64,000 bases of DNA from Verrucomicrobiia bacterium (GTDB taxonomy: Bacteria > Verrucomicrobiota > Verrucomicrobiia > Limisphaerales > UBA11358). This document shows positions 27,443 through 61,926 of the stretch, piece after piece (the first letter of the stretch is position 1; the number at the start of each line of letters is the position of its first letter). The position numbers were made by a program, and so were the translations under genes. The DNA lies in assembly GCA_036498725.1 (NCBI GenBank), contig DASYEY010000200.1:9401-73400 (forward strand), written 5' to 3'. The notes beneath the pieces are model-generated. The model did no database searches, was not told where the DNA came from, and saw nothing but the letters and a program-made list of their open reading frames with translations.

Positions 27443-27594
27443 ATTTTAAAATCTTAAATCTTCTAAGTCGGAAAGATTTATCATGCCAGGCAAGACGGTT
27501 CAATTAAATACAACCGCACCTTGCAGACAAAAATTGCTGGCGCCGGTTGAAGTTGATTATGAGCCAAAAGCGGACGAACTCATCATCAACAATT

Positions 27595-30057: not shown

Positions 30058-30135
30058 GATTTTCTTTAATCAAGCACTTGCCATGCCGCAAAACAGAATG
30101 TTTCCGGCATTGCGCGTGATCCGAAAACAATCAAA

Positions 30136-33100
30136 TCAGGGGGTCGTCGTCGCACTCACCCGATAAAATCTGGCCGCATTGGTCGCTGCCGGATCGCTTA
30201 TTTGAATGGTCCCACCTGGGCTATAATAGATATTTTGCAACATTTGCCAGGCCACAGGCGACTCGAGGTTGGTTGTGAATTGAATGAAGTAATTGGCATT
30301 CGTTTGGGCGATAAATTGGAATTGGAATTGGTTTGTCATCCACGTCATTGACTGTATTTGCGGCACCTTTAAGGGTTCCACATGCATGACGATGTCGCTG
30401 GAAACCCCGCTGGGATTGTCATTGTTATAAACCGTGAAGCTAACGGTATAATCACCTGAATTTGTCCAAGTATGCCAAGCCCCGCTATTGGTGGCCGTAG
30501 TCCCATCATCAAATGTCAAAACCGTACTCGCTGCCCGTCCGCTATAAAATCCGTAAAAATAGACCGAACGATTCACCAGCGCGTGATCTTGATAAGAAAT
30601 GCTGTCGATTGATAGCGGGCCGATGAGATTGGCCGCAATGACTTCATCACACCCCATTGAAGGCGGGTTCGTCCAAATTTCACCGTCGATATCGGTGCCA
30701 TTGGCATAAAGTCCATTGCCGGCGCCTCGACAAGGCGAAGCGATGCTGAGATGGAACAAATCCAAGATTTGCGGATCTACATTTATATTATTTGCGCCAG
30801 ATAAACCTAAAGTCGGTGAGGTGCAGGAAGAGTAATATTTATCTGTTCCAACCAACCCCATAATTGGGTCGTGATTATCTAGCTGATTAATTGGCGGCTG
30901 TGCATGGTTATTCACCACAATACTATTTCTAACAGTACTTCCGTAGGTTCCGGCTCCGCTGTGAGTTTGGAGTGTCAAATTATATTCCACAGTACAATTA
31001 TTTAGCAACGTTTCGAAAGCGCCTCCGCCCATTTGCGTTGCCCAATTATCAACCACCACAGAATTATTCAATGTTCCATAGATGATTCCTCCACCGTAAA
31101 TCGCACTGTTATTGGAAAGCATGCAATTAGCAGCAATTCCATTGAAGGCCGGATTGGGATTACAAAAAATGGCACCGCCGCTTTCCAAGGGGCCGGCAGT
31201 AGAAATATCGCCGGTCGCGCGGGTCGCGCCATCCTGTAAAGTGAAACCTGTTAACATGGCGCCATTCGCCAGCAGGTACGCACAACGCACGGCGCCCGGT
31301 CCATTTGTCATGATGGGATCCCAAGCACCTTGAATGATGGTTTTTGACCAGCCATTGACACTAATCACGGTGATGGCTTTATCCAAAACAACGCGATTGG
31401 TCAGATTGCCATCCACGATTTTCCCGCCCGTCGCATAAATACCGTTAGTCACCAATACGATATCTCCGGACGATGCAGTATTGATCGCATCTTGAATGTT
31501 GGTTGCAGCCGTCGTCCAAGTGGCGTAAGGGACAGTCGGATTTGGGCTGGCTAAATTCACGACATGGATGGCCACCTGCGTCACCACACTGGTCGCAATG
31601 CCAAAAGCATTGCTTACCACAACTTGATAGAGTCCGGCATCTTCCGGGCCAAAATTATTTACGATCAGGGCAGAGGTGCTGGAATGATCGTGGTGCCCAT
31701 CATCCTGCATTGGTATGCCATCTTTGTTCCAGAAATAAGTCAACGGGGTCTGCCCGGCGGCGATGACATTGAAAGTTAATCCATGTGCCGGTGAATCAAT
31801 CTGAAAGCCGGGTTGGAAGCCGATAACAGGAATGGAGTGCCATTCATCACAACCGATGGCGGGTGGGTTGTTCCAAGGTTGGCCATCAATATCCACACCG
31901 GAAACCACGTTGCTAAGGCCGGCGCCAATGCACGGGGAAGTGGCTGACAAATGAAGATTGTCACCGATGAGTTGCGGATTTAGCCCGATGTTTCCAATTC
32001 CTGACGGCAACGGATCAGCACAACAGTAGGCCATTGTGCAATTAGCATAGTTAGTGTTTGGATAAAGAGATAATTGGGAAAAATTGCCAAAAACGATGCA
32101 GTTGGTCAGTTTTGCCCCATAAACGGCTGCCCCATAGCCTGTACTGGAGCTGAATGAAGTATTGGCGGTCAGGGTACAATTAATTAGAGTTCCACCGTTT
32201 GCTCCGCTGCCATAACTGAATGAGGAATTTTGTCCCACGAAACAATTTTTTAAGTTACATTGATCTGCCCCTCCGCCAGTGAATCCACCGGTATTTGCAA
32301 CAGTGCCATAGCCGGCAGTATTGGTAGTGATGATGCAATCATTCAAATTACAGCTTGCTGCACCGCCACCTGTACCACTGGCTCCCACAGCCCAATTGCC
32401 AGTTATCAGGCAATTGTTCAGGGTCACATTGTATGCGCCGCCCCCGCTGGTTGCCGCAAAATTTTGGGCAATCGTGCAACCGTAAACCGTTGCATTATTT
32501 GAACTTCCCAAGACGCCCCCGCCTTTCATGGATGAGTTGGGCGAGCCGGTGGCTGTGCGCGTGGCACCGCCATAAAGAGTGAATCCACTTATAATGGCGT
32601 TGTTTGTCATCCAAACGCAGCGGATGGCTCCCGGCCCATTGGTGGAAGTCGAATCCAAAGCCCCTTGAATGATTGTGGCATTCGCGCCATTGACGCTTTG
32701 CACCAAAATTGCCTTATCAATGGAAACCCGGTTGGTGATGATACTATCCATGGATTTACCACCGCTATTATAAAGGCCATTGGTCACTAAAACGATGTCG
32801 TTGACCGCCGAGGCCGCGATGGCATCCTGGATGTTAGTCGCAGCTGTGCTCCAATTTAAATAAGGGGAAAGCGGATTGGCGCCGGCGGCACCTACGCAAT
32901 GTACGACCACTTTCACAGTCGAACTCAAGACCGTACCCAAAGCATTGCTGACCATCACTTGATAAATACCAGCATCAGCCAGTTTGGCGCCGATTGCCGT
33001 TAAAGTTGCCGTTTGCGTGGAACTGAAATGTCCGTCGTCTTGCAATAGCACACCGTCCTTAAACCAGAAAAAGCTGCAAGATAATGAGCTTTGCAGGGGG

Positions 33101-34095
33101 AAATTTCCAATGGTAAAACCGGCAGGATTACCCGTCAGGTTGAACTGGGGCACGCCAATAAGCAGTGCTGCCGACCACTCGGCGCAACCAACCGAAGGAG
33201 GATTCGACCACGTTGCACCAAAAAGATCTGTCCCGGTTCCAATATTGACACCTGTTCCGATACACGGCGAATTACTGGAAAGATGTATGCCATCTGCGAA
33301 TAATTGTGGTGGACTGGTAAAATTGCCTGTGCCGACAATTGCCGGCGTAGTGCAACAGTGGGAAAAAGAACCGCCGATGAGCTAATAATTACCGTAGGAA
33401 CCACCGTTAAAATAAAGGATGGAATTCGTCATGGCCACCGGATAGATGGCACCTACGGCTATATTACTTACAATGGTGCAATTATTGAGCACTGATTGAT
33501 AAGTTGCCCCGCCAAATGGAGTTGGAGTCCCGTTACTGACAATAAGGCAGGCATTAGCCGTTCCCTGATAAATGCCGCCACCATACTGGCCAGCAACATT
33601 CGATGCGATCAGGCAGTTGCTGACCAAAGCATTGGAAGAGGCGCACCAAGCTCCACCGCCAGCCTCTAAACTGAAGGCATCTCCGGAACTCCGCGTTGCT
33701 CCGCCCATCAAAGTGAATCCAATCAAAGCAGCTTTATTAGTCAACCACGCGCAACGGATAGCGGTATTTCCGTTGGTGGCGCCGATTCCTAAAATACTGG
33801 TCATTTGCGGGCCGTTGACGCTTTGCACAATCACTGGCTTGGTCAAAGCCACGCGGTTGGTCAAATCTCCCGCCATAACTTTTCCGCCAGATTGATAAAC
33901 CCCGTTGGTCACCAAAATTTGATCACCATTTGTGGCCACATCAATCGCATCCTGGATGTTGGTGGCGGCAGTATCCCATGTCTGAAAAGGCGGCAGGGGA
34001 GTCGGATTGCCGAGATTGACATAAAGAACCGAGGCCGAAGCCAATGCTGTGGCCAGTTTGAGGCAGAACAACGTGAAAATGATTTTGACCTTCAT
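30136..34095 (-). pseudogene. Parallel beta-helix protein of about 1319 codons with three (cap + beta-helix + Ig-like) modules, interrupted by one in-frame TAG at 33382..33384. The ORF track splits it into 33382..34095 (237 aa) and 30136..33153 (1005 aa).
   Basis: The two ORFs are in the same frame (33384-33153 = 231 = 77 x 3). My translation across the gap has no other stop: ...GGSYGNY*LIGGSFSHCCTTPAIVGTGNFTSPPQLFADGIHLSSNSPCIGTGVNIGTGTDLFGATWSNPPSVGCAEWSAALLIGVPQFNLTG.... This is colinear with the intact module ends ...YCCADPLPSGIGNIGLNPQLIGDNLHLSATSPCIGAG...DIDGQPWNNPPAIGCDEW. Only the 237-aa piece has a signal peptide. The 1005-aa piece begins at a GTG in the linker just upstream of its first Ig-like domain. 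Confidence 0.7.
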
Positions 34096-49497: not shown

Positions 49498-50428
49498 TAA
49501 TCCTTTGAATACTCCCGTCGGACATTTCCTGCTCGCAGCGATCATTACGTTTGTCGGCATGTTCATCTTGCTGCCGATTTTATTCGGCATTGCGCGGGCA
49601 TTCGGCATTTACACCATCGTCGAAGAGCGTCGGTGCAAAGTGTATATGCTGTTCGGCAAAGTCGTTACCGTGATTGACCAGCCGGGATTGCATTTCTTGA
49701 TCTTTAAAATTGGCCTCAAGGCGCCACTGATCAGTTTTCTTGGCAAATGCTTTACCCTCGATCTGCGGCTGGATCAGGAATATCTCCGGAGCACGCCGGT
49801 GAATTCCGAGGAAGGCGCGCCGATGGGCATTGGGGTCTGGTATGAAATGGTCATTTGCGATCCGGTGGCGTACCTTTTCAAAAATGCCGACCCGCGCGGA
49901 TCACTCGCCGCGAATGTCGGCAATTCCACCGTGCGTTGCCTGAGCAATTTGAAACTGGCAGACATGCTGGAAAATCGCCACCCCATGAGCCAGACCGTGC
50001 GCACCGAAGTGTCGCCGCAATCCGCAGAATGGGGTTATAGTCTGGGTTCGACCTACATCCGCAAAGTGCATTTTCGCGACGAAGGCATGATCAAGCAGAT
50101 CGAAGAAAAAGTTGTGAACCGTTTGCGGCAGGTGACGTCGGCCATCAAGCAGGATGGCACGAATCAGGTGAACATCATCGCCAGCACGGCGGAACAACAG
50201 GCGGCGATTGAGTTTGCCAAGGCGGCGGCGATGCGGCCGCAGATTGTGGGATTGGCCCTGCAAAAGATTTCGCAAGACCCGGATGTTTCACGGGCATTGT
50301 TCGAAGCGCTGGAAACGCAAAATATTATTGATGGTGAAGCTGTAATCACGTTGGTGCCAAAGAACTCCAGTTTGCTGGGACAGCTTGTGGCCGCGACCCA
50401 AGGAGTGAAACCGGGTGCGGGAAAATGA
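49475..50428 (+). CDS. SPFH/Band-7 domain membrane protein, second of the pair
   Basis: A TM helix (FLLAAIITFVGMFILLPILFGIA) is followed by IYTIVEERRCKVYMLFGKVVTVIDQPGLHF...YIRKVHFRDEGMIKQIE. The start is TTG 49475 or GTG 49490; both overlap the end of the upstream gene. Confidence 0.75.
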   Translation: MWRLIVNDNPLNTPVGHFLLAAIITFVGMFILLPILFGIARAFGIYTIVEERRCKVYMLFGKVVTVIDQPGLHFLIFKIGLKAPLISFLGKCFTLDLRLDQEYLRSTPVNSEEGAPMGIGVWYEMVICDPVAYLFKNADPRGSLAANVGNSTVRCLSNLKLADMLENRHPMSQTVRTEVSPQSAEWGYSLGSTYIRKVHFRDEGMIKQIEEKVVNRLRQVTSAIKQDGTNQVNIIASTAEQQAAIEFAKAAAMRPQIVGLALQKISQDPDVSRALFEALETQNIIDGEAVITLVPKNSSLLGQLVAATQGVKPGAGK

Positions 50429-50601
50429 AGCGAATTAAAAGCTGCCTCCAGCATAACGCTGTTTTTTTCCGGCATAATCACGATAGTGTTTCATAATGCC
50501 ATTGGCAGATAACTACGCTGGGTGGAATTGGTCGCGCGGCGACTGATTTTGCCTGCACCGCAGGCACTTTGTGGCTGTCATGGTTGCTGGATGGACTCTT
50601 T

Positions 50602-50661
50602 TTCGTCGCCTGACGCTACGCGCAGCGACGGCTTTGACCGCAGCGCAACCAAAGCCACCAC
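50602..50661 (-). repeat. Copy 2 (inverted orientation) of the 60-nt REP-like element seen at 23102..23161
   Basis: The reverse complement is GTGGTGGCTTTGGTTGCGCTGCGGTCAAAGCCGTCGCTGCGCGTAGCGTCAGGCGACGAA. It is embedded in a hairpin-rich 500-bp intergenic region. Other stems there are TGCCTGC-ACC-GCAGGCA at about 50549..50565 and GTTTGGCG-N14-CGCCAAAC at about 50680..50709. Confidence 0.7.
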
Positions 50662-50766
50662 CTGTACCAGCGTTGTTGTGTTTGGCGATCGTGTATCACT
50701 GCGCCAAACCGTTTTAAAACGCGATAAAATTTCCCGTTTGTGCTTAAAATAGTTTCGCTGGCAAAT

Positions 50767-50790
50767 ATGCCTCCAAACATGCCTCCAAAC
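50767..50790. repeat. Perfect tandem duplication of the 12-mer ATGCCTCCAAAC
   Basis: Units at 50767..50778 and 50779..50790, about 145 bp upstream of the actA ATG. Confidence 0.8.
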
Positions 50791-50828
50791 GCAAATTAAA
50801 ATCTAAGTGAAATTTTTCACAAACTTTC

Positions 50829-50858
50829 TTGCGAGGCAGGCGGCAATTTAATTAGTAT
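50829..50858 (+). promoter_or_regulatory. Candidate promoter of the act operon (TTGCGA-N18-TAGTAT)
   Basis: Hexamers at 50829..50834 and 50853..50858, about 75 nt upstream of actA. This is a pattern match only. Confidence 0.25.
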
Positions 50859-50932
50859 TTGTTGCGACACGGAATTTGAACCCATCCGTGTGGCTTTAAC
50901 TTTAGGAATAGGCCGGATTCCGGTCATTCGAA

Positions 50933-51601
50933 ATGTCAGCAATTTTTCCGAAGTGGACAAACTGGTTGCCGTTAGCGTTAGGCGTTGGAGCCGCGCTGAC
51001 GGGTGTTGCCGTGGCGGCAGGCGTGACGATTTATCTCACGCCTAAATACACGCGTGCCGGTTATCAGCCAGTGCAACCGGTGCCGTTCTCGCACAAGATT
51101 CATGCGGGACAACTTGGCGTTGATTGCCGCTATTGTCACAGTGGCGTGGATAAATCCTGGGTTGCCAATATCCCGTCCGCTTCCACCTGCATGAATTGTC
51201 ATAATCAGGTGTTGAAAGATGATCCTCGCCTGGCCTTGGTCCGGGAAAGTGCGACCAACAATACGCCCATTCCGTGGGTGCAGGTGCACATTACGCCCGA
51301 CTACGTTTATTTCAACCATTCCGTTCACGTCACTCGTGGCATCAGCTGCGTGGAATGTCACGGTCGCGTGGATCAAATGGATGAGGTCCGCCACGTCAAG
51401 TCGTTTAGCATGAGTTTCTGTTTGGATTGTCACCGCGATCCGGCGGCGCATATCCGTCCGACGGACAAAGTCACTGATTTGGGTTGGAAATGGGATGCCG
51501 ATCCCGCCAAAGCTGCCCAGTTGCAAGCCGTCAATGGCGCGAAATTCGTGCACGACTGGAAAGTGGAATCGCTGCAAAGCTGCTCGGCCTGTCACCGATG
51601 A
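50933..51601 (+). CDS. actA: Alternative complex III subunit ActA (pentahaem cytochrome c)
   Basis: 222 aa with an N-terminal TM anchor and five CxxCH motifs (CRYCH, CMNCH, CVECH, CLDCH, CSACH). Confidence 0.85.
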   Translation: MSAIFPKWTNWLPLALGVGAALTGVAVAAGVTIYLTPKYTRAGYQPVQPVPFSHKIHAGQLGVDCRYCHSGVDKSWVANIPSASTCMNCHNQVLKDDPRLALVRESATNNTPIPWVQVHITPDYVYFNHSVHVTRGISCVECHGRVDQMDEVRHVKSFSMSFCLDCHRDPAAHIRPTDKVTDLGWKWDADPAKAAQLQAVNGAKFVHDWKVESLQSCSACHR

Positions 51602-54600
51602 AAACTATTTTGAAATACGCACCCGCGCCGACGACTGGCCGCCGCTACTGGCGCAGCTTGGACGAATTGTCCGATACGCCGGAGTTCAAGGAATGGTTGC
51701 ATCGTGAATTTCCTGCCGGTGCCAGCGAGATGGAAGACGGGCAGACCCGCCGCAGTTTTCTCAAAATCATGTCAGCGTCATTCGCGTTGGCGGGTTTGGG
51801 ACTGGCTGGAGCCGGATGTCGTCGCCCGGAAGAAAAACTGGAACCGTTTGGCAAGCAGCCTGCCGATTATGTTTTTGGTGAGCCGGAATACTATGCCACC
51901 GCGATGCCGACGCGTACTGGCGCGATGCCGCTTGTCGTCAAGTCTTACGAAGGTCGTCCGGTCAAAATTGAAGGTAATGCGCTGTATCCTGGCAGCAACG
52001 GCAGCACGGACCGTTACGCGCAGGCTTCGATCCTGAATCTTTACGATCCGGACCGCGCCCGCAATTTCACGCAGGATGGCAAGGCGGTTTCCCGTGAAAC
52101 GGCATTGAGTTCTTTGGATGAGCTTTCCAAAAAAATCACCGCCAATGGCGGTGAAGGTCTGGCGTTCCTTGCCGAAAGCAGCACGTCGCCCTCGCGCGCG
52201 CGCCTGCAAAAAAACATCGCGCTGAAATTTCCGAACTCGAAATGGTTCACTTACGACGCGATTGATTCCGGCATCCATCAACGCGCGGCGACGCAGGCAT
52301 TTGGTCAATCAGTGCGTCCGGTTTTTAACTTTGACAAGGCGAAGGTTATTCTGTCGCTCGACTGTGATTTTCTCGGCGGCGAAGATGATGTGCATAATCA
52401 CATCCGCAAATTTGCCGCCGGTCGCAAAGCGGGCGAGGGGATGAATCGTCTTTATGCGGTTGAATCGCTTTACACGCTTACGGGTGCGGGCGCAGATCAT
52501 CGTTTGCGGATTCCCGCTTCCCAAGTCGTCAAGACAGCCGCGGAAATTTTGGGTCAGGTTATGGGCGGCGCAAGTGCGTCCACACCTTGGGCGGCGGAAT
52601 GCGCCAAAGATTTGATCGTGGCTGGCAAAAACGCCTTGGTCGTTGCTGGCCACCGGCAGCCGATCGAAGTCCATCTGCTCGCCCACGCCATCAACACCGC
52701 GTTGAATGGTATCGGCAATACAATTTCTTTGCTGCCGGTCGAAAAGACAACCAATGAAGATTTAAAAAATCTCGATGGTGCCGCGACGGATACGCTGGTC
52801 ATTCTCGGTGGTAATCCAGCTTACAATCTGAATTGGTCGCCGAAATCGAAGACGGTGGTCCGACTGGGGTATTATCCGGACGAAACGGCCGAGAAATCAT
52901 TCTTGAATTTTCCGGCGGCGCATTATCTCGAATCGTGGAGCGACGCGGTCACGAGCGATGGCTCGGTTGTCCCCGTTCAGCCATTGATTCAGCCGTTGTT
53001 CAACGGTTTGCAGGAATTGGAATTTCTGGCCCGCCTCGCTGGCGAATCAGAAACCAGCGCTTACGAAATTGTCCGGACAACCTCCGGTCTTTCCGAAGCG
53101 GCCTGGAAACAATTTTTATTCAATGGTTTTGCCGCGTCAAAAACGGAGTCCTTGACCGGCGTGAAGATGGTTCAATCATCCAATGATTTGAATCAATTAC
53201 TGGCGAACGTGAAAAGCATCACGCCTTCCGCCTCTAATCTCGAAGTTGTTTTCTTCCGTGATGCGAAAGCCGACGACGGCGCACTGGCCAATAACGGCTG
53301 GATGCAGGAATTGCCCGATCCCATCACCAAGATGACGTGGGACAATGCCGTGCTCATCAGCCGCAAGACGGCGCGTGACTTGGGCGTGCAAAACGGCGAT
53401 GTCGTGGAGATTTCGTTGAATGGCAAAACGGTGAGCGGTCCGATTTGGACCCAGCCGGGCATGGCGGATTATTCGCTTGGCCTCGCGCTTGGTTATGGCC
53501 GTGAAAAAGCCGGTCGCGTCGGCAACGGTGTCGGTTTCAACGCTTATAAAATTTTCAGCGGCAAATTTATCGAAGCCGGAGCGACGGTTAAGAAGACCGG
53601 CGCCACTTATACCCTGGCCTGCACGCAGCATCACTGGAGCATGGAAGGCCGTCCGGCCGTGCGTGAAGCGAACCTTGAAGAATTTCTCAAAGAACCAACG
53701 TTCGCCGAGGAAAATTTCCATGGCGTCGAGCCGCCGGTTGTCAAATCGCTTTATCCGAACCCGCTGGATGAGGCAAAGAAGACGGCTTTGCATCAATGGG
53801 GGATGTCCATTGATTTGAACGCATGCGTCGGTTGCGGCACGTGCATCATTGCCTGCCAAAGCGAAAACAACATTCCGATCGTCGGCAAAGACCAGGTCTT
53901 GCGCGGGCGCGAAATGCACTGGCTGCGGGTGGATCGCTATTTCACGTCGGATCCGAAACGTAAAAACAATAAAAGCCCGTTTGATTTCGGCGCGGACGAA
54001 AATCAGAGCGATGAAAATCAGCAGTTCGCCAAATGGATTGATGACGTGCAGGTTGTCAATCAGCCGATGCCTTGCCAGATGTGCGAATCGGCGCCATGCG
54101 AAAGCGTTTGCCCGGTCAACGCCACCGTTCACGACCAGGAAGGTTTGAACGTGATGGCTTACAACCGCTGCATTGGCACGCGGTATTGCTCGAACAACTG
54201 CCCTTACAAGGTTCGTCGTTTCAATTTCCTGGATTACAACAAACGCCCGCTGACGGAGCTGAATGGCACGACAAAATTTGGGGTAACAGCTTATTCCACG
54301 ACGCTCACGCACAAGACGGATGGCGAAGCGGATATTTTACGCTGGTGGAAAGACCCGAACAGCGGGATGCGCACCGAAGACGAGTGGGACTTGATCAAGC
54401 TCTCGAAGAACCCGGATGTGACCGTGCGTATGCGCGGGGTCATGGAGAAGTGCACCTATTGCACACAGCGCATCGAGCAGGCAAAAATTTCGCAAAAAGC
54501 CAAAGCCGGCGGCAGTGATAATGTCCGGCTTACGGAGGCGGCGGGAACGGTTCCCAAGACCGCATGCCAGCAGGCATGTCCGGCCGGGGCCATCGTCTTC

Positions 54601-54807
54601 GGTGATATCAGTGACGCGGCGAGCACAGTTTCGACCTTGAAAAAATTGCCGCACAATTATTCCGTCCTCGGTGACTTGTTGACCAAGCCGCGCACGACCT
54701 ATCTGGCGCGCATCCGCAATCCGAATCCGGCGATGCCCGATTATCATGTGCCGTTCAGTACGGAAGAATACGAAAATGCAAGTCTGGCGAAGAAAGGCAA
54801 CAGCTAA
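51598..54807 (+). CDS. actB: Alternative complex III subunit ActB (molybdopterin-oxidoreductase-like domain fused to an FeS domain)
   Basis: The start is taken at ATG 51598 (ATGA overlap with the actA stop). The ORF-track start at 51484 lies inside actA. The Tat motif is TRRSFLKIMSASFALAGLGLAG. FeS clusters: CVGCGTCIIACQSENN, CQMCESAPCESVCP, CIGTRYCSNNCPYKVRRFN, CTYCTQRI and CQQACPAGAIVFGD. Confidence 0.88.
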   Translation: MKTILKYAPAPTTGRRYWRSLDELSDTPEFKEWLHREFPAGASEMEDGQTRRSFLKIMSASFALAGLGLAGAGCRRPEEKLEPFGKQPADYVFGEPEYYATAMPTRTGAMPLVVKSYEGRPVKIEGNALYPGSNGSTDRYAQASILNLYDPDRARNFTQDGKAVSRETALSSLDELSKKITANGGEGLAFLAESSTSPSRARLQKNIALKFPNSKWFTYDAIDSGIHQRAATQAFGQSVRPVFNFDKAKVILSLDCDFLGGEDDVHNHIRKFAAGRKAGEGMNRLYAVESLYTLTGAGADHRLRIPASQVVKTAAEILGQVMGGASASTPWAAECAKDLIVAGKNALVVAGHRQPIEVHLLAHAINTALNGIGNTISLLPVEKTTNEDLKNLDGAATDTLVILGGNPAYNLNWSPKSKTVVRLGYYPDETAEKSFLNFPAAHYLESWSDAVTSDGSVVPVQPLIQPLFNGLQELEFLARLAGESETSAYEIVRTTSGLSEAAWKQFLFNGFAASKTESLTGVKMVQSSNDLNQLLANVKSITPSASNLEVVFFRDAKADDGALANNGWMQELPDPITKMTWDNAVLISRKTARDLGVQNGDVVEISLNGKTVSGPIWTQPGMADYSLGLALGYGREKAGRVGNGVGFNAYKIFSGKFIEAGATVKKTGATYTLACTQHHWSMEGRPAVREANLEEFLKEPTFAEENFHGVEPPVVKSLYPNPLDEAKKTALHQWGMSIDLNACVGCGTCIIACQSENNIPIVGKDQVLRGREMHWLRVDRYFTSDPKRKNNKSPFDFGADENQSDENQQFAKWIDDVQVVNQPMPCQMCESAPCESVCPVNATVHDQEGLNVMAYNRCIGTRYCSNNCPYKVRRFNFLDYNKRPLTELNGTTKFGVTAYSTTLTHKTDGEADILRWWKDPNSGMRTEDEWDLIKLSKNPDVTVRMRGVMEKCTYCTQRIEQAKISQKAKAGGSDNVRLTEAAGTVPKTACQQACPAGAIVFGDISDAASTVSTLKKLPHNYSVLGDLLTKPRTTYLARIRNPNPAMPDYHVPFSTEEYENASLAKKGNS

Positions 54808-56243
54808 TGTCTGACTCCGTGACCAATCTGGAAGAGTTGAAAAAACTCGTGCCGCCGGCGGAACTCCGCCGTGCGCCGGTCGTTGAGGGCAATAAAGGTC
54901 TTGGCTGGCTGACGGATAAACTGGCCGCGTTCGCCGAAGGCAAAACGCCGCTCTGGTGGTGGATTTTTTTCATCCCGGCCGCGTTTGCTGCAACAGTGAT
55001 CTTTCCGGTGTGTCTGTTTTATCAAGTGTTCACCGGCGTTGGGGTCTGGGGTAACAACCATCCCGTGATGTGGGGCCTGGACATCGTGAATTTCATCTGG
55101 TGGGTCGGCGTCGCGCATGCGGGCACGTTGATTTCTGCGCTCCTGTTTTTGACCAAACAACATTGGCGCACAACCATTGGACGCATGGCGGAAGCCATGA
55201 CGGTTTTTTCCGTGATGATGGCCGGGCTTTATCCGGCGATCCACGTCGGGCGTGCCTGGTTCGATTGGTTCATGTTCCCCGTGCCGAATTCCAACGACCT
55301 GTGGCCGCAATTTCGTTCGCCGTTGATGTGGGACGTGTTCGCCGTGAACACTTACCTCGTCGTCTCGATGTTGTTCTTTTTCATGGGCATGATCCCGGAC
55401 TTCGCAGTGTTGCGCGACCGCTCGACCACGCGTGTCCGCAAGGCGATCTTCAGTATCTTGGCAATGGGTTGGACGGGTTCCGCGCGGCATTGGCATCATT
55501 ATGAAAAAGCCTATGTGGTGATGTGCGGCCTTTGCACGCTGTTGGTGTTTACGGTGAGTTCCATCGTCGGTCTCGACTTTTGCACCGCGCAAATCGCGGG
55601 CTGGCACGCGACGATTTTTCCGTTGTATTTCGTCATCGGCGCGGTGTTCTGCGGTTTCGGCATGATGCTCGTCCTCTTGATTCCGTTGCGCAAATGGTGC
55701 GGACTCGAAAACGTCATCACCAAGAGTCACATTGATAAAGTGGCCAAGCTTGCCTTGGTCAGCGGTCTGATCATTGATTACATCTATTTGATGGAATTTT
55801 TCATCGCCTGGTACAGCGGCGATCCTTATGAACGCTGGGTGTTCGGTCATCGCCTGTTCGGTCATACATATTTCGTCATGGGCTGGATCTTGATCGGCAT
55901 CAACGTCTGCGTGACACAGTTGCTTTGGTTCAAAAAAGTCCGTTCCAATTTGGCCATGCTGTTTGTCATCGGCATTTTGATCAACATCGGCATGTGGAGC
56001 GAACGCTTCGTCATTGTCGTCGGCTCGTTGTATCAGGAATTTTTGCCGGCGAACTGGGGCAAATATATGCCGACGATTTGGGACGTCGGTCTTTACATCG
56101 GCACCCTCGGCGCCTTTTTCATGCTGTATCTGTTGTTTGTGAAATTCCTGCCAATGATCGCTATTTCTGAAGTGAAAGGTGTCATGCCGGAAGCGGACCC
56201 GCATCACAAACTCGGTGGGGCCAAAACCGGAGGTGACAAGTGA
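54807..56243 (+). CDS. actC: Alternative complex III subunit ActC (NrfD/PsrC-like quinol-interacting membrane subunit)
   Basis: 478 aa, polytopic, with GVWGNNHPVMWGLDIVNFIWWVGVAHAGTLIS. There is a 1-nt TAATG overlap with actB. Confidence 0.85.
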   Translation: MSDSVTNLEELKKLVPPAELRRAPVVEGNKGLGWLTDKLAAFAEGKTPLWWWIFFIPAAFAATVIFPVCLFYQVFTGVGVWGNNHPVMWGLDIVNFIWWVGVAHAGTLISALLFLTKQHWRTTIGRMAEAMTVFSVMMAGLYPAIHVGRAWFDWFMFPVPNSNDLWPQFRSPLMWDVFAVNTYLVVSMLFFFMGMIPDFAVLRDRSTTRVRKAIFSILAMGWTGSARHWHHYEKAYVVMCGLCTLLVFTVSSIVGLDFCTAQIAGWHATIFPLYFVIGAVFCGFGMMLVLLIPLRKWCGLENVITKSHIDKVAKLALVSGLIIDYIYLMEFFIAWYSGDPYERWVFGHRLFGHTYFVMGWILIGINVCVTQLLWFKKVRSNLAMLFVIGILINIGMWSERFVIVVGSLYQEFLPANWGKYMPTIWDVGLYIGTLGAFFMLYLLFVKFLPMIAISEVKGVMPEADPHHKLGGAKTGGDK

Positions 56244-56791
56244 ACGCACCCGCTGGAGAAAAAATTTACGGCATCATGGCGGAATTTGATTCGCCGGCCG
56301 CGATTTTGCGTGCTGCGGAACAAGTCCGTGACGCTGGTTATCGTCGCTGGGATACCTTCACGCCGTTCCCGGTTCACGGCATGGACAAGGTCATGAAACT
56401 CGGCAATTCGCTGGTTGGCTGGGTCGCTTTGGCGGGTGGCGCATTCATGTTTCTCAATGTCGCCGGACTCATCTGGTTCAGCAATGCGTTTGATTATCCG
56501 CTGATTGTTGGTGGCAAACCGATGTTCAGCGTACCGATGACGTTCGTGCCCTCGTACATTATGCTCATCATGGGCGGGGCAGTAGGGGCATTGATCGGCA
56601 TGTTGGGTTTGAATCAATTGCCGCGCTTGCACCATCCACTCTTGAAAAAGCCCGCTTTTGAAGCCGTTTCACGCGATAAATTTATCCTGCTGATTGGTGC
56701 GACGGATGAAAAGTTCTGCGCCGCGGAAACCCGCAAGTTGCTGGAGCAAGCCGGCGGCGTGCAAGTCACCATCGTGGAGGACGAAGACTGA
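56240..56791 (+). CDS. actD: Alternative complex III subunit ActD (DUF3341)
   Basis: It carries IYGIMAEFDSPAAILRAAEQVRDAGYRRWDTFTPFPVHGMDKVM. The GTG start overlaps the actC stop (GTGA). Confidence 0.85.
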   Translation: MNAPAGEKIYGIMAEFDSPAAILRAAEQVRDAGYRRWDTFTPFPVHGMDKVMKLGNSLVGWVALAGGAFMFLNVAGLIWFSNAFDYPLIVGGKPMFSVPMTFVPSYIMLIMGGAVGALIGMLGLNQLPRLHHPLLKKPAFEAVSRDKFILLIGATDEKFCAAETRKLLEQAGGVQVTIVEDED

Positions 56792-57447
56792 TGCGTTACG
56801 TTATTTCCATTTTATTGATCAGTACGGCCATCGGCGCCGCGACCTTTGGCATGTTGGGATGGCAAGGCGGCTTGATGCGCAAACCGCCGTTTGAATTATT
56901 CCCCGACATGGACCGGCAGGCGAAATTACGCCCGCAGAAGCCGTTTGCGTTTTTCACCAACGGCCTCAGTTCACAATTGGCTCCGGCTGGCACCATTGCC
57001 CGCAGTGTCCCCATTGAGACGAGCAATGGCCCGGTCTATCGTTTTGAAGATTCGCCCGTCAACACGGGGATGACAACGGGTACCACAAACTTTATTGAAA
57101 ACAATCCGTTGCCAGTGACCGGTGTGTTGCTGGCACGCGGCCATGAACGCTTTGATATCTATTGCGCACCCTGCCACGGCAAAATGGGGGATGGCAATGG
57201 CATCACCAAACGGATCGGGGCCATGCCCGCCGTGGCGAACCTGCACGATGCGCGCATCGTGGAGATGGCCGATGGCGAGATTTTTAACACCGTTACCCAC
57301 GGCAAAGGCTTGATGGGCGCCTATGGCCCGATTGTGCCGGCGGAAGATCGTTGGGCGTTGATCGCTTATTTGCGCGCATTGCAATTGAGCACGCTCGGCT
57401 CGACCGATGATTTGACGCCCGAGCAACAGGCCGCTTTGAATAAATGA
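56791..57447 (+). CDS. actE: Alternative complex III subunit ActE (monohaem cytochrome c)
   Basis: It has a single CxxCH in ERFDIYCAPCHGKMGDGNG and an N-terminal hydrophobic anchor without a lipobox Cys. There is a TGATG overlap with actD. Confidence 0.8.
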   Translation: MRYVISILLISTAIGAATFGMLGWQGGLMRKPPFELFPDMDRQAKLRPQKPFAFFTNGLSSQLAPAGTIARSVPIETSNGPVYRFEDSPVNTGMTTGTTNFIENNPLPVTGVLLARGHERFDIYCAPCHGKMGDGNGITKRIGAMPAVANLHDARIVEMADGEIFNTVTHGKGLMGAYGPIVPAEDRWALIAYLRALQLSTLGSTDDLTPEQQAALNK

Positions 57448-58706
57448 CCATGAGTTCAAACCACGCAAAAAATCAATTGCCGCCGCTGGATCTTTCCAAG
57501 TGGCGCGGCTTGCCGAAGGTTTTGATGGTCATCGGCGGAATTTTATCGGTGGCCGGATTGGCCGTCAGCGGTTACAAAAATCACTTTCAGGAATTCGGAT
57601 TTTCCTGGCTGCTGGCGTTCATGTTTTTTTACAGCCTCGCGCTGGGCTCATTGTTTCTCGTGATGATCCATCACTTGACCGATGCCGGTTGGTCGGTTGG
57701 CATCCGCCGCTTTTGTGAACATCTGGCGTCATTGCTGGGCTGGCCGTTGATCGCCATGTTCCTGCCGGTTGCAATTTTTGCGAAAGATATATACAGTTGG
57801 ATGAAGTTCAGCCCGGAGACCAATAATTTGGTCGCGGCTAAATTGCCGGTGTTCACTCAGACGGGATTTTACGTCACTTCCGCGATTTTCTTCGGTTTCT
57901 TGTGGTTTTTATCTTGGCGTCTGAGTTCGTTGTCGTTGCAACAGGACAAGACGGGTGCGGCGGAGCAAACGTACAAAATGCGTTTTTATTCGGGGTGGGG
58001 GATTGTTGCCCTCGCGTTGGTGATCACTTTTTCCGGCGTGTTATGGATGAAGGCCGTTCAGTATGAGTGGTTTTCCTGCATCTATGGCGTCTATTTCTTT
58101 TCCGACTGCGCATGGATCGCATTGGCAACGGTTTATATGATTGCTGCGATCTTGTACCGCCAGCGTATTTTGGCCGGATTATTGCAGGAAAATTATTTCT
58201 ACTACATCGGATTATTGTTCTTTGGTTTCACGTTGTTTTCGGCGTACACGGAGTTTGCGCAATACTTTGTCGTTTGGAACGCCAACATGCCGCAGGAAAC
58301 ATTCTGGTACCTTATCCGTGAAAACGGTAATTGGTGGACCTTAAGCCTGATATTGATTCTGGGACATTTCTTTGTGCCGTTTTTTATCCTGTTGCCGGTC
58401 AAGGTTAAGAGCAGCTTCAAAGTCGTCATCCCTGTCTGTCTCTGGGCCTGGTTGATGCACGCGCTGGACCTGGCGTTCAATATTTTCCCGACGTTGCACA
58501 ACGACGGTTATCATTTTAAATGGATTTGGCTGCCGCTCGGTACGATGCTTTTCATGGGCGGATTTTTGGCGCAGATTTTCCTGAATAAATTTAATGCCAA
58601 TCCGCCGTATCCGCAGCGTGATCCCCGCCTGCTCGAAGCGATGGGCGTGAACGCAAACCTCGTCAATGATCTGACGCCGGCCACCAATACGGGAGGCAAC
58701 CAATGA
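57444..58706 (+). CDS. actF: Alternative complex III subunit ActF (second NrfD-like membrane subunit)
   Basis: 420 aa, polytopic, in the canonical position after actE. There is an ATGA overlap with actE. Confidence 0.8.
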   Translation: MTMSSNHAKNQLPPLDLSKWRGLPKVLMVIGGILSVAGLAVSGYKNHFQEFGFSWLLAFMFFYSLALGSLFLVMIHHLTDAGWSVGIRRFCEHLASLLGWPLIAMFLPVAIFAKDIYSWMKFSPETNNLVAAKLPVFTQTGFYVTSAIFFGFLWFLSWRLSSLSLQQDKTGAAEQTYKMRFYSGWGIVALALVITFSGVLWMKAVQYEWFSCIYGVYFFSDCAWIALATVYMIAAILYRQRILAGLLQENYFYYIGLLFFGFTLFSAYTEFAQYFVVWNANMPQETFWYLIRENGNWWTLSLILILGHFFVPFFILLPVKVKSSFKVVIPVCLWAWLMHALDLAFNIFPTLHNDGYHFKWIWLPLGTMLFMGGFLAQIFLNKFNANPPYPQRDPRLLEAMGVNANLVNDLTPATNTGGNQ

Positions 58707-59071
58707 GTCTTGAAAATACCAATCGCGCTTCCGGTGCCGTCATCGCCTTCATCATCGGCAGTTTGATTTTTATCGTGCTGTCCGTCGTGGCAAAATTTGC
58801 GGTCACCGTGCCGGATATAGACGCCGACCCGGGTGCGCTCCGCAGCCGGGCACTGGTCCAGATGCGGGCCGTGGAATCTACCAATTTGACCGAACTCGGC
58901 TGGGCTGATGTCTCCCGCGGACTGGTGCGTTTGCCGATTGAAACGGCGATGCAGAAGGCCGAAAAGTTGTGGCAAAATCCGGCGCAAGCCCGCGCTGAAT
59001 TGATTGCGCGTGAAAAGAAGGCGGTCGCGCCCGCGCCGACGCGTCCGGTCAAACCCAGTGCCTTTGAATGA
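58703..59071 (+). CDS. Small single-TM protein of unknown function. Its position is compatible with an ActG/ActH-type accessory subunit, but I did not recognise any homology.
   Basis: 122 aa with one TM helix (GAVIAFIIGSLIFIVLSVVAKF) and a soluble tail. There are ATGA overlaps on both sides. Confidence 0.6.
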   Translation: MSLENTNRASGAVIAFIIGSLIFIVLSVVAKFAVTVPDIDADPGALRSRALVQMRAVESTNLTELGWADVSRGLVRLPIETAMQKAEKLWQNPAQARAELIAREKKAVAPAPTRPVKPSAFE

Positions 59072-60486
59072 ACGTGAACGAAAAATCTAACGCTGCTGAT
59101 GTCTCCCCGGGCCAGATCGACGCCTCGTGTCGTGTGCCTTTGCTCGCGCTGTTTGGCGGCGCAGCCCTGTGGCTGGTCGTCGGCCTCGTGCTGGCCTTGA
59201 TCGCTTCGATCAAATTTCATCAGCCCGAGTTTCTGGTAAATTGTTCGTTGCTCACTTACGGTCGCGTTCAAGCGGCGGCGAATGATCTGATTCTTTACGG
59301 CTTTGCCATTCCTGCCGGGCTGGGCGTGATGCTCTGGATCTTTGCCCGTTTAAGCCAGGCTGAACTCATCCTGCCGCTGGTGCCGGTTGTCGCTGCCAAT
59401 ATCTGGCATGCCGGCGTCTTTATCGGCTTGGTGGCGATTTTGATCGGCGAAACTTCTGGCTTTGCGTGGTTGGAATTTCCGCGCGCCAGCTTCGCCTTGA
59501 TGCTCGCGGCGTTTATTTTGATCGCCCTCTCTGCGGCCGGTACTTTTGGACAACGCCGGGAGCGCGAGCTTTATCCCTCGCATTGGTTTCTCCTGGCGGC
59601 GTTGCTGTGGTTCCCTTGGATTTATTCCACCGCCAATATTTTCCTTTTAATCTGGCCGGTGCGCGGCGTCGCGCAGGCGGTCATCAACTGGTGGTATGTG
59701 AACAATCTGATCTTTGTCTGGCTGACCCTTGTCGGCCTTGGCGTCGCCTTCTATTTCCTGCCGAAATTGGGCGGCAAGCCATTGCACAGCCGCTTTTATG
59801 CGCAATTTGCTTTCTGGACTTTGACGTTGTTCGGAACGTTCCTCGGCATTCCTCAGGGTGCACCGGTGCCGGCCTGGTTTCCGGCCGCCAGCACGCTGGC
59901 TTCAGTGTTATTGATCATTCCACTGATCGCCGTCGCCATCATTTTTGTCAAAACCGTTTGTGGAGCAGGCGCCAATTGCAAAGGCGGACCTTTCTGCCAG
60001 GTCAAATTTGGCACGGTTGTATTCCTATTGTCCGGCCTGATGCTGATCGCCATCAGTTGCCCGCACTTCAGCCAGATCACCCGTTATACCTGGTTTGAAA
60101 CCGCGCAAACCCAGTTGCAAATTTTTGGCTTCTTCGCAATTGTGATTCTCGCTGGCGCCAATGAAATATTGCCGCGCATCATGGCTTCGGCGCTGCCATT
60201 TCCGAAATTTGTCCGCGTGCAGCATTGGTGTTTTATGCTCGGCACCCTGTTGCTGGTCGGTTCACTGGCGGTCAGCGGCATCGAACAAGGTCTGAATAAT
60301 TACAGCTTCGCGACGGCCTTGCCGGCGTTGCGTATCAGCACCTTGGGTCTGTTTTTATTATTGATCGGCAGTCTGTTGTTTGCCGCCAATGTTTTTGTGA
60401 TGACGATCAAGTGGAAACTCGGTTTGGCCAAGGTGGTATTTACGACCGTGACGGCGCCATTGAAAACGGCGGAGGTGAAATCATGA
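59068..60486 (+). CDS. CcoN-like (cbb3 oxidase subunit I fold) polytopic membrane protein lacking all canonical haem and CuB histidine ligands
   Basis: 472 aa. It is colinear with CcoN signature blocks, but the ligand positions are substituted: YGRVQAAANDLI, WWYVNNLIFV, LGIPQGAPV and ETAQTQLQIFGF (see finding). Conserved non-ligand blocks are retained (FYFLPK, VQHWCFMLG). Confidence 0.75.
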   Translation: MNVNEKSNAADVSPGQIDASCRVPLLALFGGAALWLVVGLVLALIASIKFHQPEFLVNCSLLTYGRVQAAANDLILYGFAIPAGLGVMLWIFARLSQAELILPLVPVVAANIWHAGVFIGLVAILIGETSGFAWLEFPRASFALMLAAFILIALSAAGTFGQRRERELYPSHWFLLAALLWFPWIYSTANIFLLIWPVRGVAQAVINWWYVNNLIFVWLTLVGLGVAFYFLPKLGGKPLHSRFYAQFAFWTLTLFGTFLGIPQGAPVPAWFPAASTLASVLLIIPLIAVAIIFVKTVCGAGANCKGGPFCQVKFGTVVFLLSGLMLIAISCPHFSQITRYTWFETAQTQLQIFGFFAIVILAGANEILPRIMASALPFPKFVRVQHWCFMLGTLLLVGSLAVSGIEQGLNNYSFATALPALRISTLGLFLLLIGSLLFAANVFVMTIKWKLGLAKVVFTTVTAPLKTAEVKS

Positions 60487-61280
60487 AAAACGGCTTTACA
60501 GTTTTCCTGGCATCCTTCTTTGTGCTCGGCAGTTCGTGGACGGCCTTCGTGCTCGGCTCGGCAATCCAGCTTGGCCATGAAAAGCAGACCACGGTGCTGA
60601 ATGGCTCGGATGCTTATCCGGTTCAACGTGCTGGTGAGGCCACCCTTGGGTTGCAAGTATATCGTGCCAGTGGGTGTGCAGCTTGCCACACTGAACAGGT
60701 TCAACAAAATGGCATGGCGTGCGATGTGATCCTGACTGCGGCGGGAAAGAATGCGGCTGCAGTTTCCAATCTGGTCGCCAAGCTGAAACTGAGCGATCTT
60801 TCAGAAGAGGAAGCGGCGGCAACGGCTGATAAAATCACGGCGGCTGGCGGAAAAGTGGAAACCCGCATCATTGCCACCGGCGGCGACATTGCCCGTGGCT
60901 GGGGTATCCGGCATAGCGTTGCTGCTGACTACCTTTACGATTATCCGGTTCAACTTGGCAGTCTTCGCGTCGGGCCTGACTTGGGAGCGATCGGGGTTCG
61001 CATGGCCGATGTAAATCTGCAATTGCAACATCTTTACGCCCCGAAGAGCGTGAATGCTGCTTCGGCCATGCCGCCGTTCAGGTTTTTATTTGAAGTTCGC
61101 AAGGTGGGCACCGTGCGTTCGCCGGAAGCTTTGAATTTGCCCAAAGAATTTGCGCCGGCGGATGGCTACGAGGTCGTGCCCAAACCGGAAGCCAGACAAC
61201 TCGTGGCGTATCTTTTGAGCCTGCGCGCTGATGTGCCGTTATATGAAGCGCCGTTCACGCCTGCCACTCCCAAAAAATGA
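60483..61280 (+). CDS. CcoO-like monohaem cytochrome c (cbb3 subunit II homologue) with an insert of about 58 aa after the haem motif
   Basis: Taken from ATG 60483 (ATGA overlap). It has a TM anchor; GLQVYRASGCAACHTEQV (CxxCH at 60675..60689); DYLYDYPVQLGSLRVGPDLGAIG; and HLYAPKSVNAASAMPPF (the Met ligand region). Confidence 0.78.
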   Translation: MKNGFTVFLASFFVLGSSWTAFVLGSAIQLGHEKQTTVLNGSDAYPVQRAGEATLGLQVYRASGCAACHTEQVQQNGMACDVILTAAGKNAAAVSNLVAKLKLSDLSEEEAAATADKITAAGGKVETRIIATGGDIARGWGIRHSVAADYLYDYPVQLGSLRVGPDLGAIGVRMADVNLQLQHLYAPKSVNAASAMPPFRFLFEVRKVGTVRSPEALNLPKEFAPADGYEVVPKPEARQLVAYLLSLRADVPLYEAPFTPATPKK

Positions 61281-61879
61281 GCGACGAATCCAAATCCTGT
61301 TCCACTCCGTCCAACGCTGAACCCAAGGCGACGCGTTCGACTGTGCCCATGTGGATTTTTTCAGCGATGCTCGTGCTGATTTATCTGGGTACGGTTTATT
61401 TCGATCACCACAGCGGCTGGTTCAGTGCGAAGGTCTATTCCCCTTACGGCAACGTGGATGAATTGGAATTGTACCAGCCGAAGTCCGGCGCTGCCGCGCA
61501 GTTGGCGCGTGGTAAACAAGTTTACGAACAGGTCTGCGGCCTCTGTCACGGCGTGGACGGCATGGGTAAACCCGGGCAGGCGCCGCCGCTGGCCGGCTCC
61601 GAATGGGTCATGGCGAAGGGAACCACCCGCCTGACGCACATTCCTTTGCTTGGAGTCACGGGCACGATCAAAGTACAGGGCAAAGATTGGAACATGTCCA
61701 TGGCCGCAATGGGTGCTTCCTTGTCAGACTCAGACCTGGCATCGGTACTGACTTATATCCGTGGCTCTTGGGGCAATAAAGCTGAAGCGGTGACGGCTGA
61801 CGATGTGAAGGCGGTCCGGGCTGGCATCAAATCACCGGTGCCGATGACCGGTGAACAGATGATGAAGATGCCGGAATAA
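61277..61879 (+). CDS. Membrane-anchored monohaem class I cytochrome c (CcoP-like single domain)
   Basis: 200 aa with a TM helix (MWIFSAMLVLIYLGTVYF) and GKQVYEQVCGLCHGVDGMGKPGQAPPLAGSEW...SMAAMG. There is an ATGA overlap with the CcoO-like gene. Confidence 0.8.
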   Translation: MSDESKSCSTPSNAEPKATRSTVPMWIFSAMLVLIYLGTVYFDHHSGWFSAKVYSPYGNVDELELYQPKSGAAAQLARGKQVYEQVCGLCHGVDGMGKPGQAPPLAGSEWVMAKGTTRLTHIPLLGVTGTIKVQGKDWNMSMAAMGASLSDSDLASVLTYIRGSWGNKAEAVTADDVKAVRAGIKSPVPMTGEQMMKMPE

Positions 61880-61898: not shown

Positions 61899-61926
61899 AA
61901 AAGGCGTCCATTGTGGACGCCTTTTT
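61899..61926. terminator. Bidirectional Rho-independent terminator between the respiratory operon and queG
   Basis: AAAA-GGCGTCCA(61903..61910)-TTG-TGGACGCC(61914..61921)-TTTTT(61922..61926). The A-run and T-run flank the stem symmetrically. Confidence 0.8.

Follow-up and report, generated by a model that had tools for sequence, protein, structure and literature searches.

A ten-gene alternative complex III operon with a cbb3-like subunit I that has lost its metal ligands in a Verrucomicrobiia bacterium

Can the cbb3-like genes that follow an alternative complex III (ACIII) operon still reduce oxygen and, if not, what may they do for the complex next to which they are encoded? This question is raised by a 64,000-nucleotide stretch of a soil or peat Verrucomicrobiia bacterium (assembly GCA_036498725.1, contig DASYEY010000200.1, positions 9,401 to 73,400), hereafter called the window. 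Reading of the sequence together with the list of open reading frames (ORFs) gives ten plus-strand ORFs, separated by nine junctions, at 50933-61879. The first six encode a complete ACIII, the seventh (orf122) a small membrane protein, and the last three a module resembling cbb3 oxidase. In this module the subunit I homologue (CcoN-like) keeps the fold of an oxidase core and is predicted to bind neither of the haems nor the copper of a true cbb3 enzyme.

The CcoN-like gene (59068-60486, +) encodes a protein of 472 aa with the 12 transmembrane (TM) helices of the haem-copper oxidase subunit I fold. It matches Pfam COX1 with 120 bits and cbb3 CcoN chains with a phmmer E value of 8e-18. Its AlphaFold model (pLDDT 78, pTM 0.82) superposes on the CcoN chains of 3MK7 (3mk7_A), 8SMR and 9G6B with a TM-score of 0.83 and a root-mean-square deviation of 2.7 Å over about 455 columns, at a sequence identity to cbb3 CcoN of 20%. 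Many structural residues, among them W35, G65, R66, W113, E136, R163, W209, Y229 and P232, are common to true CcoN and to the family of the window protein. The curated whole-protein score is nevertheless not reached, as the ccoN model TIGR00780 gives 93.7 bits against a cut-off of 583.15.

The reason for the doubt about catalysis lies in the ligand columns, which were read from alignments to solved cbb3 structures. In the window protein H60 (haem b) is replaced by Ala, H207 (CuB) by Asn, H345 (haem b3) by Gln and H347 (haem b) by Gln. The cross-linked Tyr, Y251, is replaced by Gly, and by Gly or Ala across the family. The CuB pair H257/H258 is non-His as well, being Pro-Gln or a gap depending on the alignment, and adjoins a deletion of two residues. 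The columns themselves were computed; for the assignment of each His to its metal we presume the one known from the P. stutzeri structure. Among 89 homologues taken from related loci, Ala is found at H60 in 87, Gln at H345 in 88 and Gln at H347 in 82. In the wider family, assembled by two word-index searches, 220 of the 237 members have no His in any of the six ligand columns. Fewer than three of the seven ligand columns (the six His and Tyr251) hold His in 127 of 132 representatives chosen at 50% identity. The full ligand set occurs in only three of these 132 full-length representatives, and the others vary in those columns. No alternative His, Met, Cys, Tyr or Lys reaches at least 80% conservation across the wide family. 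The original prediction had spoken of a ligand-less catalytic subunit, and the alignment to solved structures bears it out: neither the six His nor the Tyr remain in the window protein, and the loss extends across the family. The CcoN-like protein is a true CcoN homologue and has probably become a redox-inert 12-helix membrane protein.

Four Cys of the window protein, C59 (59242-59244), C304 (59977-59979), C310 (59995-59997) and C331 (60058-60060), are kept in 74-86 of the 89 close relatives, but their conservation does not extend to the wider family. Judged by the topology, C59 and C331 are expected on the periplasmic side, with C304 and C310 in a loop on the cytoplasmic side. They might be there to form a disulfide or to bind a metal.

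The two cytochromes encoded downstream look quite intact. The CcoO-like gene (60483-61280, +) encodes a membrane-anchored monohaem cytochrome c of 265 aa with the haem site CAACH. It matches Pfam FixO (PF02433) with 57 bits and aligns to cbb3 CcoO chains; its score with the curated ccoO model is 55.7 bits against a cut-off of 200.65. The CxxCH motif is present in 74 of 74 homologues, and the Met-Pro axial-ligand motif is also kept. The last gene (61277-61879, +) encodes a membrane-anchored monohaem class-I cytochrome c of 200 aa with the site CGLCH. Its best matches in the PDB are the cytochrome c domain of a Cu-nitrite reductase (70 bits) and Thermus c552 (54 bits), with CcoP at 33 bits. It has one CxxCH only, conserved in homologues, and scores 25.9 bits with the ccoP model TIGR00782 (cut-off 179.95). 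The protein therefore appears to be a carrier of the c552 type rather than a CcoP. The claim that the c-type haem subunits are retained (CAACH, CGLCH) was likewise correct, both motifs being present in the sequence and both haem sites being conserved in homologues. Since the ligands, the Tyr, a CcoP subunit and the curated scores all fail, the module is not a cbb3 oxidase in the functional sense. We conclude from these comparisons of sequences and models that the ligand-less CcoN genes of this lineage, which carry the label 'cbb3 oxidase', almost certainly encode proteins that do not reduce oxygen.

The CcoO-like protein of the window also carries an insertion of about 52 aa directly after CAACH. 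The inserted region corresponds to about 60690-60917 of the window (residues ~70-145) and measures 52-86 aa across loci. It is found in the ligand-less loci, where the proteins are 260-306 aa long, and is absent in three ligand-bearing loci, where they are 190-210 aa. A relationship of the insertion to the C-terminal domain of ribosomal protein L7/L12 is treated as no more than a lead: the matches are colinear but below threshold (PF00542, E = 0.15). A 15-residue BLASTP match to L7/L12 was also seen, and a profile search of the PDB ranks L7/L12 C-terminal domains first, with E = 0.075.

The genes upstream leave little ambiguity about the partner of this module. actA (50933-51601, +), the first in the conserved order, encodes a membrane-anchored pentahaem cytochrome c of 222 aa with a hydrophobic N-terminus, five CxxCH motifs (CRYCH, CMNCH, CVECH, CLDCH and CSACH) and matches to Pfam cytochrome c7/c3 families. 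actB (51598-54807, +) encodes the molybdopterin-like and 4Fe-4S subunit (1069 aa), which is exported by the twin-arginine translocation (Tat) pathway according to the variant signal model TIGR04519 (61.8 bits, cut-off 20.6). ActB contains Fer4 domains and matches ActB of Rhodothermus marinus (6f0k_B) with 743 bits, the scores being 743-744 bits across 6f0k_B and 8k9e_B. actC (54807-56243, +) encodes the quinol-binding membrane subunit of the NrfD type (478 aa; Pfam NrfD; 498 bits to 6f0k_C). It is followed by actD (56240-56791, +; 183 aa, GTG start; 184.6 bits to PF11821) and by actE (56791-57447, +), which encodes a monohaem cytochrome c of 218 aa with a single CAPCH and matches to Pfam Cytochrome_CBB3 and Cytochrom_C. 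actF (57444-58706, +) encodes a second NrfD-like membrane subunit (420 aa; 196.5 bits to ActF, 6f0k_F). Wherever a locus extends far enough, its gene order is actABCDEF. The operon can be assigned to the ACIII family because every ACIII feature looked for was found, and genes 1-6 encode a complete ACIII (ActABCDEF).

The seventh gene, orf122 (58703-59071, +), encodes 122 aa with one N-terminal TM helix. It has no relative in Pfam, NCBIfam, the PDB sequences (phmmer, E <= 10) or Foldseek (searched with the AF2 model), and every one of its 57 homologues is annotated as 'hypothetical'. The soluble part is small and conserved, with the motifs DAD and G-x-VRLPI. The AF2 model (pLDDT 70.6, pTM 0.29) consists of a TM helix and a small helical/hairpin domain. 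In the planctomycete Telmatocola the same position is occupied by a weak homologue (23% identity, pairwise E = 4e-5). ActG has been described as an optional subunit with a single TM helix and no cofactor (PMC5928083). orf122 occupies the actG position of other act clusters, and its size and single N-terminal helix match the description of ActG. Position and topology are thus the two grounds on which orf122 may be equated with ActG.

How closely are these genes tied to each other? All nine junctions are overlaps of 1 or 4 nt. Four-nucleotide ATGA overlaps are found at 51598, 57444, 58703, 59068, 60483 and 61277, and a GTGA overlap at 56240. The two 1-nt overlaps are a TAATG ending at 54807/54809 and a TGATG at 56789-56793. 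For ActB and the CcoO-like protein the mechanically defined ORF extends further upstream than the overlapping ATG; the latter is the better start because the spacing is exactly kept in related loci. For the last four genes, a gene prediction made independently on a Logan contig of identical sequence arrives at the same starts. A GGAGG-like motif lies upstream at five junctions (a weaker GAAAGG in the case of actC). No Shine-Dalgarno sequence is visible upstream at the remaining four, those of ActB, ActF, the CcoN-like protein and the last cytochrome, which fits coupling by termination and reinitiation. Promoter-like matches inside the unit number 8 versus 7.9 in shuffled sequences, and terminator-like matches 21 versus 18. 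The overlaps appear to exceed chance, given their retention in related loci, and the gene arrangement points to one operon of ten genes read as a single transcript. Every junction quoted in the original prediction is present in the sequence. Its same-strand coupling also stands, and its count of eleven genes does not: there are ten, as in its own list.

Two antisense ORFs, of 481 aa (54804-56249, -) and 205 aa (50978-51595, -), exactly shadow actC and actA, respectively. They are most likely artefacts of codon composition and not genes.

The same arrangement is found well outside the window, in about 90 related loci. A scan of one genome per species detected nine loci, all in metagenome-assembled genomes (MAGs) of Verrucomicrobiota. 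The act genes lie directly upstream in eight of the nine, while the ninth locus starts inside the CcoN-like gene, and the order is the same as far as the contigs reach. Eighty metagenome loci, obtained in a scan with an 8-sequence alignment that returned close relatives only (54-76% identity), show the same gene order. It is also seen in seven distant relatives (down to 31% identity), on whose individual look-ups the gene context of the distant CcoN-like members rests. Where contigs reach far enough, the CcoN-like module is accompanied by ActF in 58 of 59 loci, by orf122 in 78 of 80, by the CcoO-like gene in 76 of 77 and by the last cytochrome in 60 of 65. The main exception is L012, a free-standing, ligand-bearing cbb3. 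The 4-nt overlap is retained between the CcoN-like and CcoO-like genes in 71 of 71 cases, between orf122 and the CcoN-like gene in 67 of 73, and between actF and orf122 in 49 of 54. The family search gave 310 clusters (50% identity) at E <= 1e-30. Taxon names are those of the MAG records, and some of them, such as 'Baltobacteraceae' and 'Binatia', are probably mis-binned. The proposed tie of the four distal genes to the act operon is thus supported by their adjacency and conserved overlaps in related loci. The finding that would have spoken against it, distal genes not conserved beside act genes in relatives, was not obtained. The comparison of act operons suggested at the time gives the same picture, with the CcoN-like gene, the CcoO-like gene, the cytochrome gene and orf122 occurring together behind actF.

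One metagenome contig (L095:4234-12529) has a rearranged version of the locus. A single product of 910 aa combines ActC, ActD and ActE, the gene for this fusion is separated from actF by a Tn5-type transposase gene, and the CcoN-like protein and a FixO domain form one product of 842 aa.

Where could such a module have come from? The closest named relative with ligands is the CcoN of Telmatocola sphagniphila (locus L011:1007-15828 in CP074694.1). This locus encodes, on one strand, ActA, ActB, an ActC-D fusion, ActE, ActF, a 153-aa TM protein and FixS/CcoS, followed by CcoN with its full ligand set, a 210-aa FixO, a cytochrome c and a CcoI-type P-type ATPase. Neither the window nor the 95 other loci, Telmatocola apart, contain a FixS or CcoI homologue. 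An Opitutales MAG (L094:5791-7251, JBBDUJ010000067.1) has the same gene order, and its ACIII-linked CcoN has the four haem-ligand His. At the CuB His-His site this protein has Gln-Tyr, and Ala stands in place of the active-site Tyr. It resembles a haem-only stage on the way from a working cbb3 oxidase to the ligand-less form. In a crude neighbour-joining tree with Pseudomonas CcoN as the root, the sequences that bear ligands occupy the base. Of the 125 sequences in one derived clade, all are ligand-less but for one nested member with three His (P0130).

These observations suggest that the source of the last four genes was a genuine cbb3 oxidase, which in an ancestor had already been joined to the act operon. 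Most simply, oxidase chemistry was lost a single time from this ancestral ACIII-cbb3 operon and the proteins were retained, with Telmatocola apparently preserving the ancestral state. Among the Verrucomicrobiota of the Pedosphaerales/Limisphaerales type, the lineage of the window, CcoN would have lost both haems and CuB, at a locus without ccoS and ccoI. Purifying selection, which is seen on the CcoN-like gene, would have preserved it from then on as a 12-helix membrane protein without redox activity. Telmatocola with full ligands, the Opitutales MAG with the haem ligands only and the ligand-less clade represent three states open to comparison. They form a testable series for the decay of an enzyme into a structural subunit.

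What might the retained proteins do? We lean, with confidence a little better than even, towards a redox-inert CcoN scaffold that holds two membrane-anchored c-type haems as an electron exit of ACIII. The CcoN-like protein would serve as scaffold or anchor, as CcoN does for CcoO in cbb3, and would place the periplasmic haem domains of the CcoO-like protein and the tethered c552-like cytochrome next to ActA and ActE. Electrons could then move from menaquinol through the ActC site, the iron-sulfur clusters of ActB and the haems of ActA and ActE to the CcoO-like haem and on to the tethered cytochrome c. The latter would finally pass them to a terminal enzyme, an oxidase or a reductase, whose gene would lie outside the window; the 64 kb contain no terminal oxidase gene. 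The module itself would be unable to reduce O2 or NO. In the original prediction the oxidase partner was an electron-exit or relay module and not an O2 reductase. The non-catalytic part of that claim holds, with the ligands gone and the c-haem sites kept, and the relay role, which fits the data, is something that we infer from them.

Several points weigh against a scaffold with an electron exit. We infer, rather than observe, the single transcript, the association with ACIII and the transfer through two extra haems. ACIII of Flavobacterium johnsoniae is reported to deliver electrons even without ActE (PMC8552683), and to that extent an extra haem relay is not obviously required. The dN/dS ratio of the CcoN-like gene is 0.10-0.15, versus 0.02-0.24 for the Act genes in the same four pairs, although dS is about 1-2, near saturation, and the values are approximate. 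A pure scaffold poorly explains a dN/dS as low as that of catalytic subunits, and it leaves the near-invariant Gln-x-Gln and the clade-specific Cys unaccounted for. The analysis covered one 64-kb window of the genome, and the downstream acceptor would have to be encoded outside it. Finally, the neighbour-joining tree carries no support values.

The strength of selection would be better accounted for if the CcoN-like protein were an ion-conducting or energy-coupling subunit providing a proton (or Na+) pathway for ACIII, the cytochromes being secondary. Purifying selection on it is equal to that on ActC and ActF, and the full 12-helix fold appears to be retained in the model. Many structural residues of true CcoN are conserved (W35, G65, R66, W113 and others), and so is Gln-x-Gln at the old haem-ligand sites within the clade. 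Moreover, pumping by ACIII is debated (PMC8498564), and half-channels have been proposed in ActC and ActF (PMC5928083). We still consider such a pathway, the main rival of the scaffold, unlikely. Haem-copper oxidases move protons by means of the redox chemistry of their metal centres, and the window protein has lost these. Apart from loop residues that canonical CcoN shares, no acidic or basic residue buried in the membrane is invariant family-wide; the old ligand positions are free to vary in the wide family, and no coupling partner can be named. Stated more generally, subunit I could have turned into a redox-inert yet essential ACIII subunit, a 'pseudo-oxidase' with a role beyond anchoring (an ion pathway or conformational coupling). 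This is possible, though we hold it only tentatively. If it is true, an order-level lineage of abundant soil and peat Verrucomicrobiota runs a ten-subunit ACIII machine and is without the high-affinity cbb3 oxidase credited to it by genome annotation.

Public annotation points to something quite different, namely a working oxygen or nitric-oxide reductase, which in this case would have to use unconventional ligands. Besides the label 'cbb3-type cytochrome c oxidase subunit I', the intact CcoO-like protein and c-type cytochrome, the normal electron-entry subunits, speak for it. Such an enzyme is nonetheless highly improbable given the loss of six His and the Tyr, and the 2-residue deletion at the His-His site of CuB. 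No substitute His, Met, Cys, Tyr or Lys reaches 80% conservation across the family, and the replacement residues vary. In addition, ccoS and ccoI are not nearby, unlike in the ligand-bearing relative, and the 93.7 bits fall far short of the 583-bit equivalog cut-off for ccoN. At the other extreme, the distal genes could be a decaying remnant without function whose deletion is pending, as might be expected from the missing catalytic residues and from the drift of the former ligand positions in the wide family. We give this hardly any credence, because the reading frames are intact in about 90 loci (55-83% identity) and in the 310 clusters, dN/dS is ~0.1 and the 4-nt overlaps are kept. Furthermore, the haem sites of the partner proteins are conserved, and the CcoO-like protein has even gained a conserved insertion.

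The flanks of the operon provide some clues regarding its expression. The spacer upstream of actA is 504 bp long and folds better than shuffled sequences (z = -4.2), and it had been described as a 500-bp structured leader. This candidate was dropped: an Rfam search of 50380-50980 at E <= 1 gave no match, and conservation of the spacer in relatives is limited to the last ~130 nt, which does not suggest a conserved structured RNA. Most of the spacer is probably untranscribed intergenic DNA. The sole conserved block has as its core the palindrome GTGAAATTTTTCAC (50807-50820), of the type aGTGA-N6-TCACa, which we take to be the operator type of CRP/FNR-family regulators. The block with this palindrome lies upstream of actA in about 28 of 30 related loci. 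The window contains a single exact copy of it, and no further copies above chance. Promoter-like hexamers are read on the plus strand at 50829-50834 (TTGCGA) and 50853-50858 (TAGTAT), and the upstream alignment shows a 'CTTGCG' plus 'TTaAa.a' element at fixed spacing in nearly every locus. The hexamers suggest a putative regulated promoter and a 5' untranslated region of ~65 nt rather than a 500-nt leader, and the conserved block hints at a dedicated regulator. Expression is probably controlled by this promoter with a candidate CRP/FNR-type operator ~115 nt upstream of actA. At the other end, a hairpin at 61899-61925 (12-bp stem with 6 GC pairs, 3-nt loop, A-run 5' and T-run 3') fills the 46-bp gap to the convergent gene queG and is the top match of the terminator scan. 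The clean bidirectional terminator claimed at this site is thus readily recognized as an intrinsic one.

Within the spacer, a G+C-rich part (50510-50700) forms long predicted stems and contributes much of the z score. Conservation of this part was seen in no relative, and Rfam gave no match to it.

The window encodes other proteins with CxxCH motifs, and a link of the DUF1111 protein, two dihaem modules and an 820-aa protein to the operon had been hinted at. We rejected this link. The genes lie 20-40 kb away on the other strand, in unrelated surroundings of housekeeping and glycoside-hydrolase genes. At 9454-12068 (-), the DUF1111/di-haem oxidoreductase gene (PF06537) adjoins an imelysin gene (PF09375), its own partner. 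At 24260-33153 (-), three large secreted-looking proteins of 1060, 820 and 1005 aa are encoded in a row. The first has no Pfam match, the second has the middle domain of hydrazine synthase alpha as its sole Pfam match (E = 1.7e-8), and the third contains Ig/PKD domains.

The loss of ligands matters beyond this locus. Every named member of the CcoN-like family that we encountered is annotated as 'cbb3-type cytochrome c oxidase subunit I', and such genes are taken as a sign of high-affinity oxygen respiration when the metabolism of Verrucomicrobiota is reconstructed. This practice is exemplified by PMC13608581 and PMC7914226, where the genes may or may not belong to the CcoN-like family. Should the module be unable to reduce O2, conclusions about microaerobic respiration in peat and soil bacteria of the Pedosphaerales/Limisphaerales type would need to be revisited. 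The family also offers a natural experiment on the haem-copper oxidase scaffold apart from catalysis, on the handing on of electrons by ACIII and on possible ion coupling.

Adjacency of ACIII and cbb3 genes is itself known. In Verrucomicrobia, ACIII beside a C-type oxidase has been treated as standing next to a working cbb3 (PMC8498564, citing Refojo et al. 2010; PMC6688271). Ligand loss is not mentioned in the full-text literature that was searched, a collection that lacks many subscription papers. As far as we could find, ligand loss in an ACIII-linked CcoN is new, and a metal-free 12-helix oxidase core kept for a very long time has not been described. The window resembles the ACIII-cbb3 clusters of Verrucomicrobia and Planctomycetes (Methylacidiphilum, Opitutaceae, Telmatocola) in having the act genes followed by ccoN, ccoO and cytochrome c on one strand, with a small TM ORF between actF and ccoN. 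Among these named clusters, the ligands were compared for Telmatocola. In Telmatocola the CcoN ligands are complete, and the gene is flanked by ccoS (FixS) and a gene for a ccoI-type P-type ATPase. In contrast, the window has no ligands, no ccoS or ccoI, an extra domain in the CcoO-like protein and a monohaem c552-like third subunit. With the cbb3 oxidases of P. stutzeri (3MK7/5DJQ) and P. aeruginosa (8SMR) it shares the 12-helix subunit I fold and a CcoO with a His/Met-coordinated haem c, but it has no ligands for haem b, haem b3 or CuB, no Tyr, no dihaem CcoP and no CcoQ.

ACIII is reported to associate physically with haem-copper oxidase, with direct transfer from haem to haem (PMC5928083, PMC8552683). 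The Act subunits of the window match the ACIII structures of the known supercomplexes. As in Flavobacterium johnsoniae (ACIII-aa3, 6BTM) and Rhodothermus marinus (ACIII-caa3, 6F0K), ACIII is encoded beside an oxidase or its derivative. However, the partner is an active A-type oxidase in those two systems and, in the window, a putative one of C-type descent that is predicted to bind none of its metals. A further parallel comes from the mitochondrial bc1 complex, whose core 1 and core 2 proteins derive from a processing peptidase and persist as inactive relics in the role of structural subunits. The protein family is a different one and the likeness is an analogy: in both cases a fold has been kept under selection after its catalytic residues were lost.

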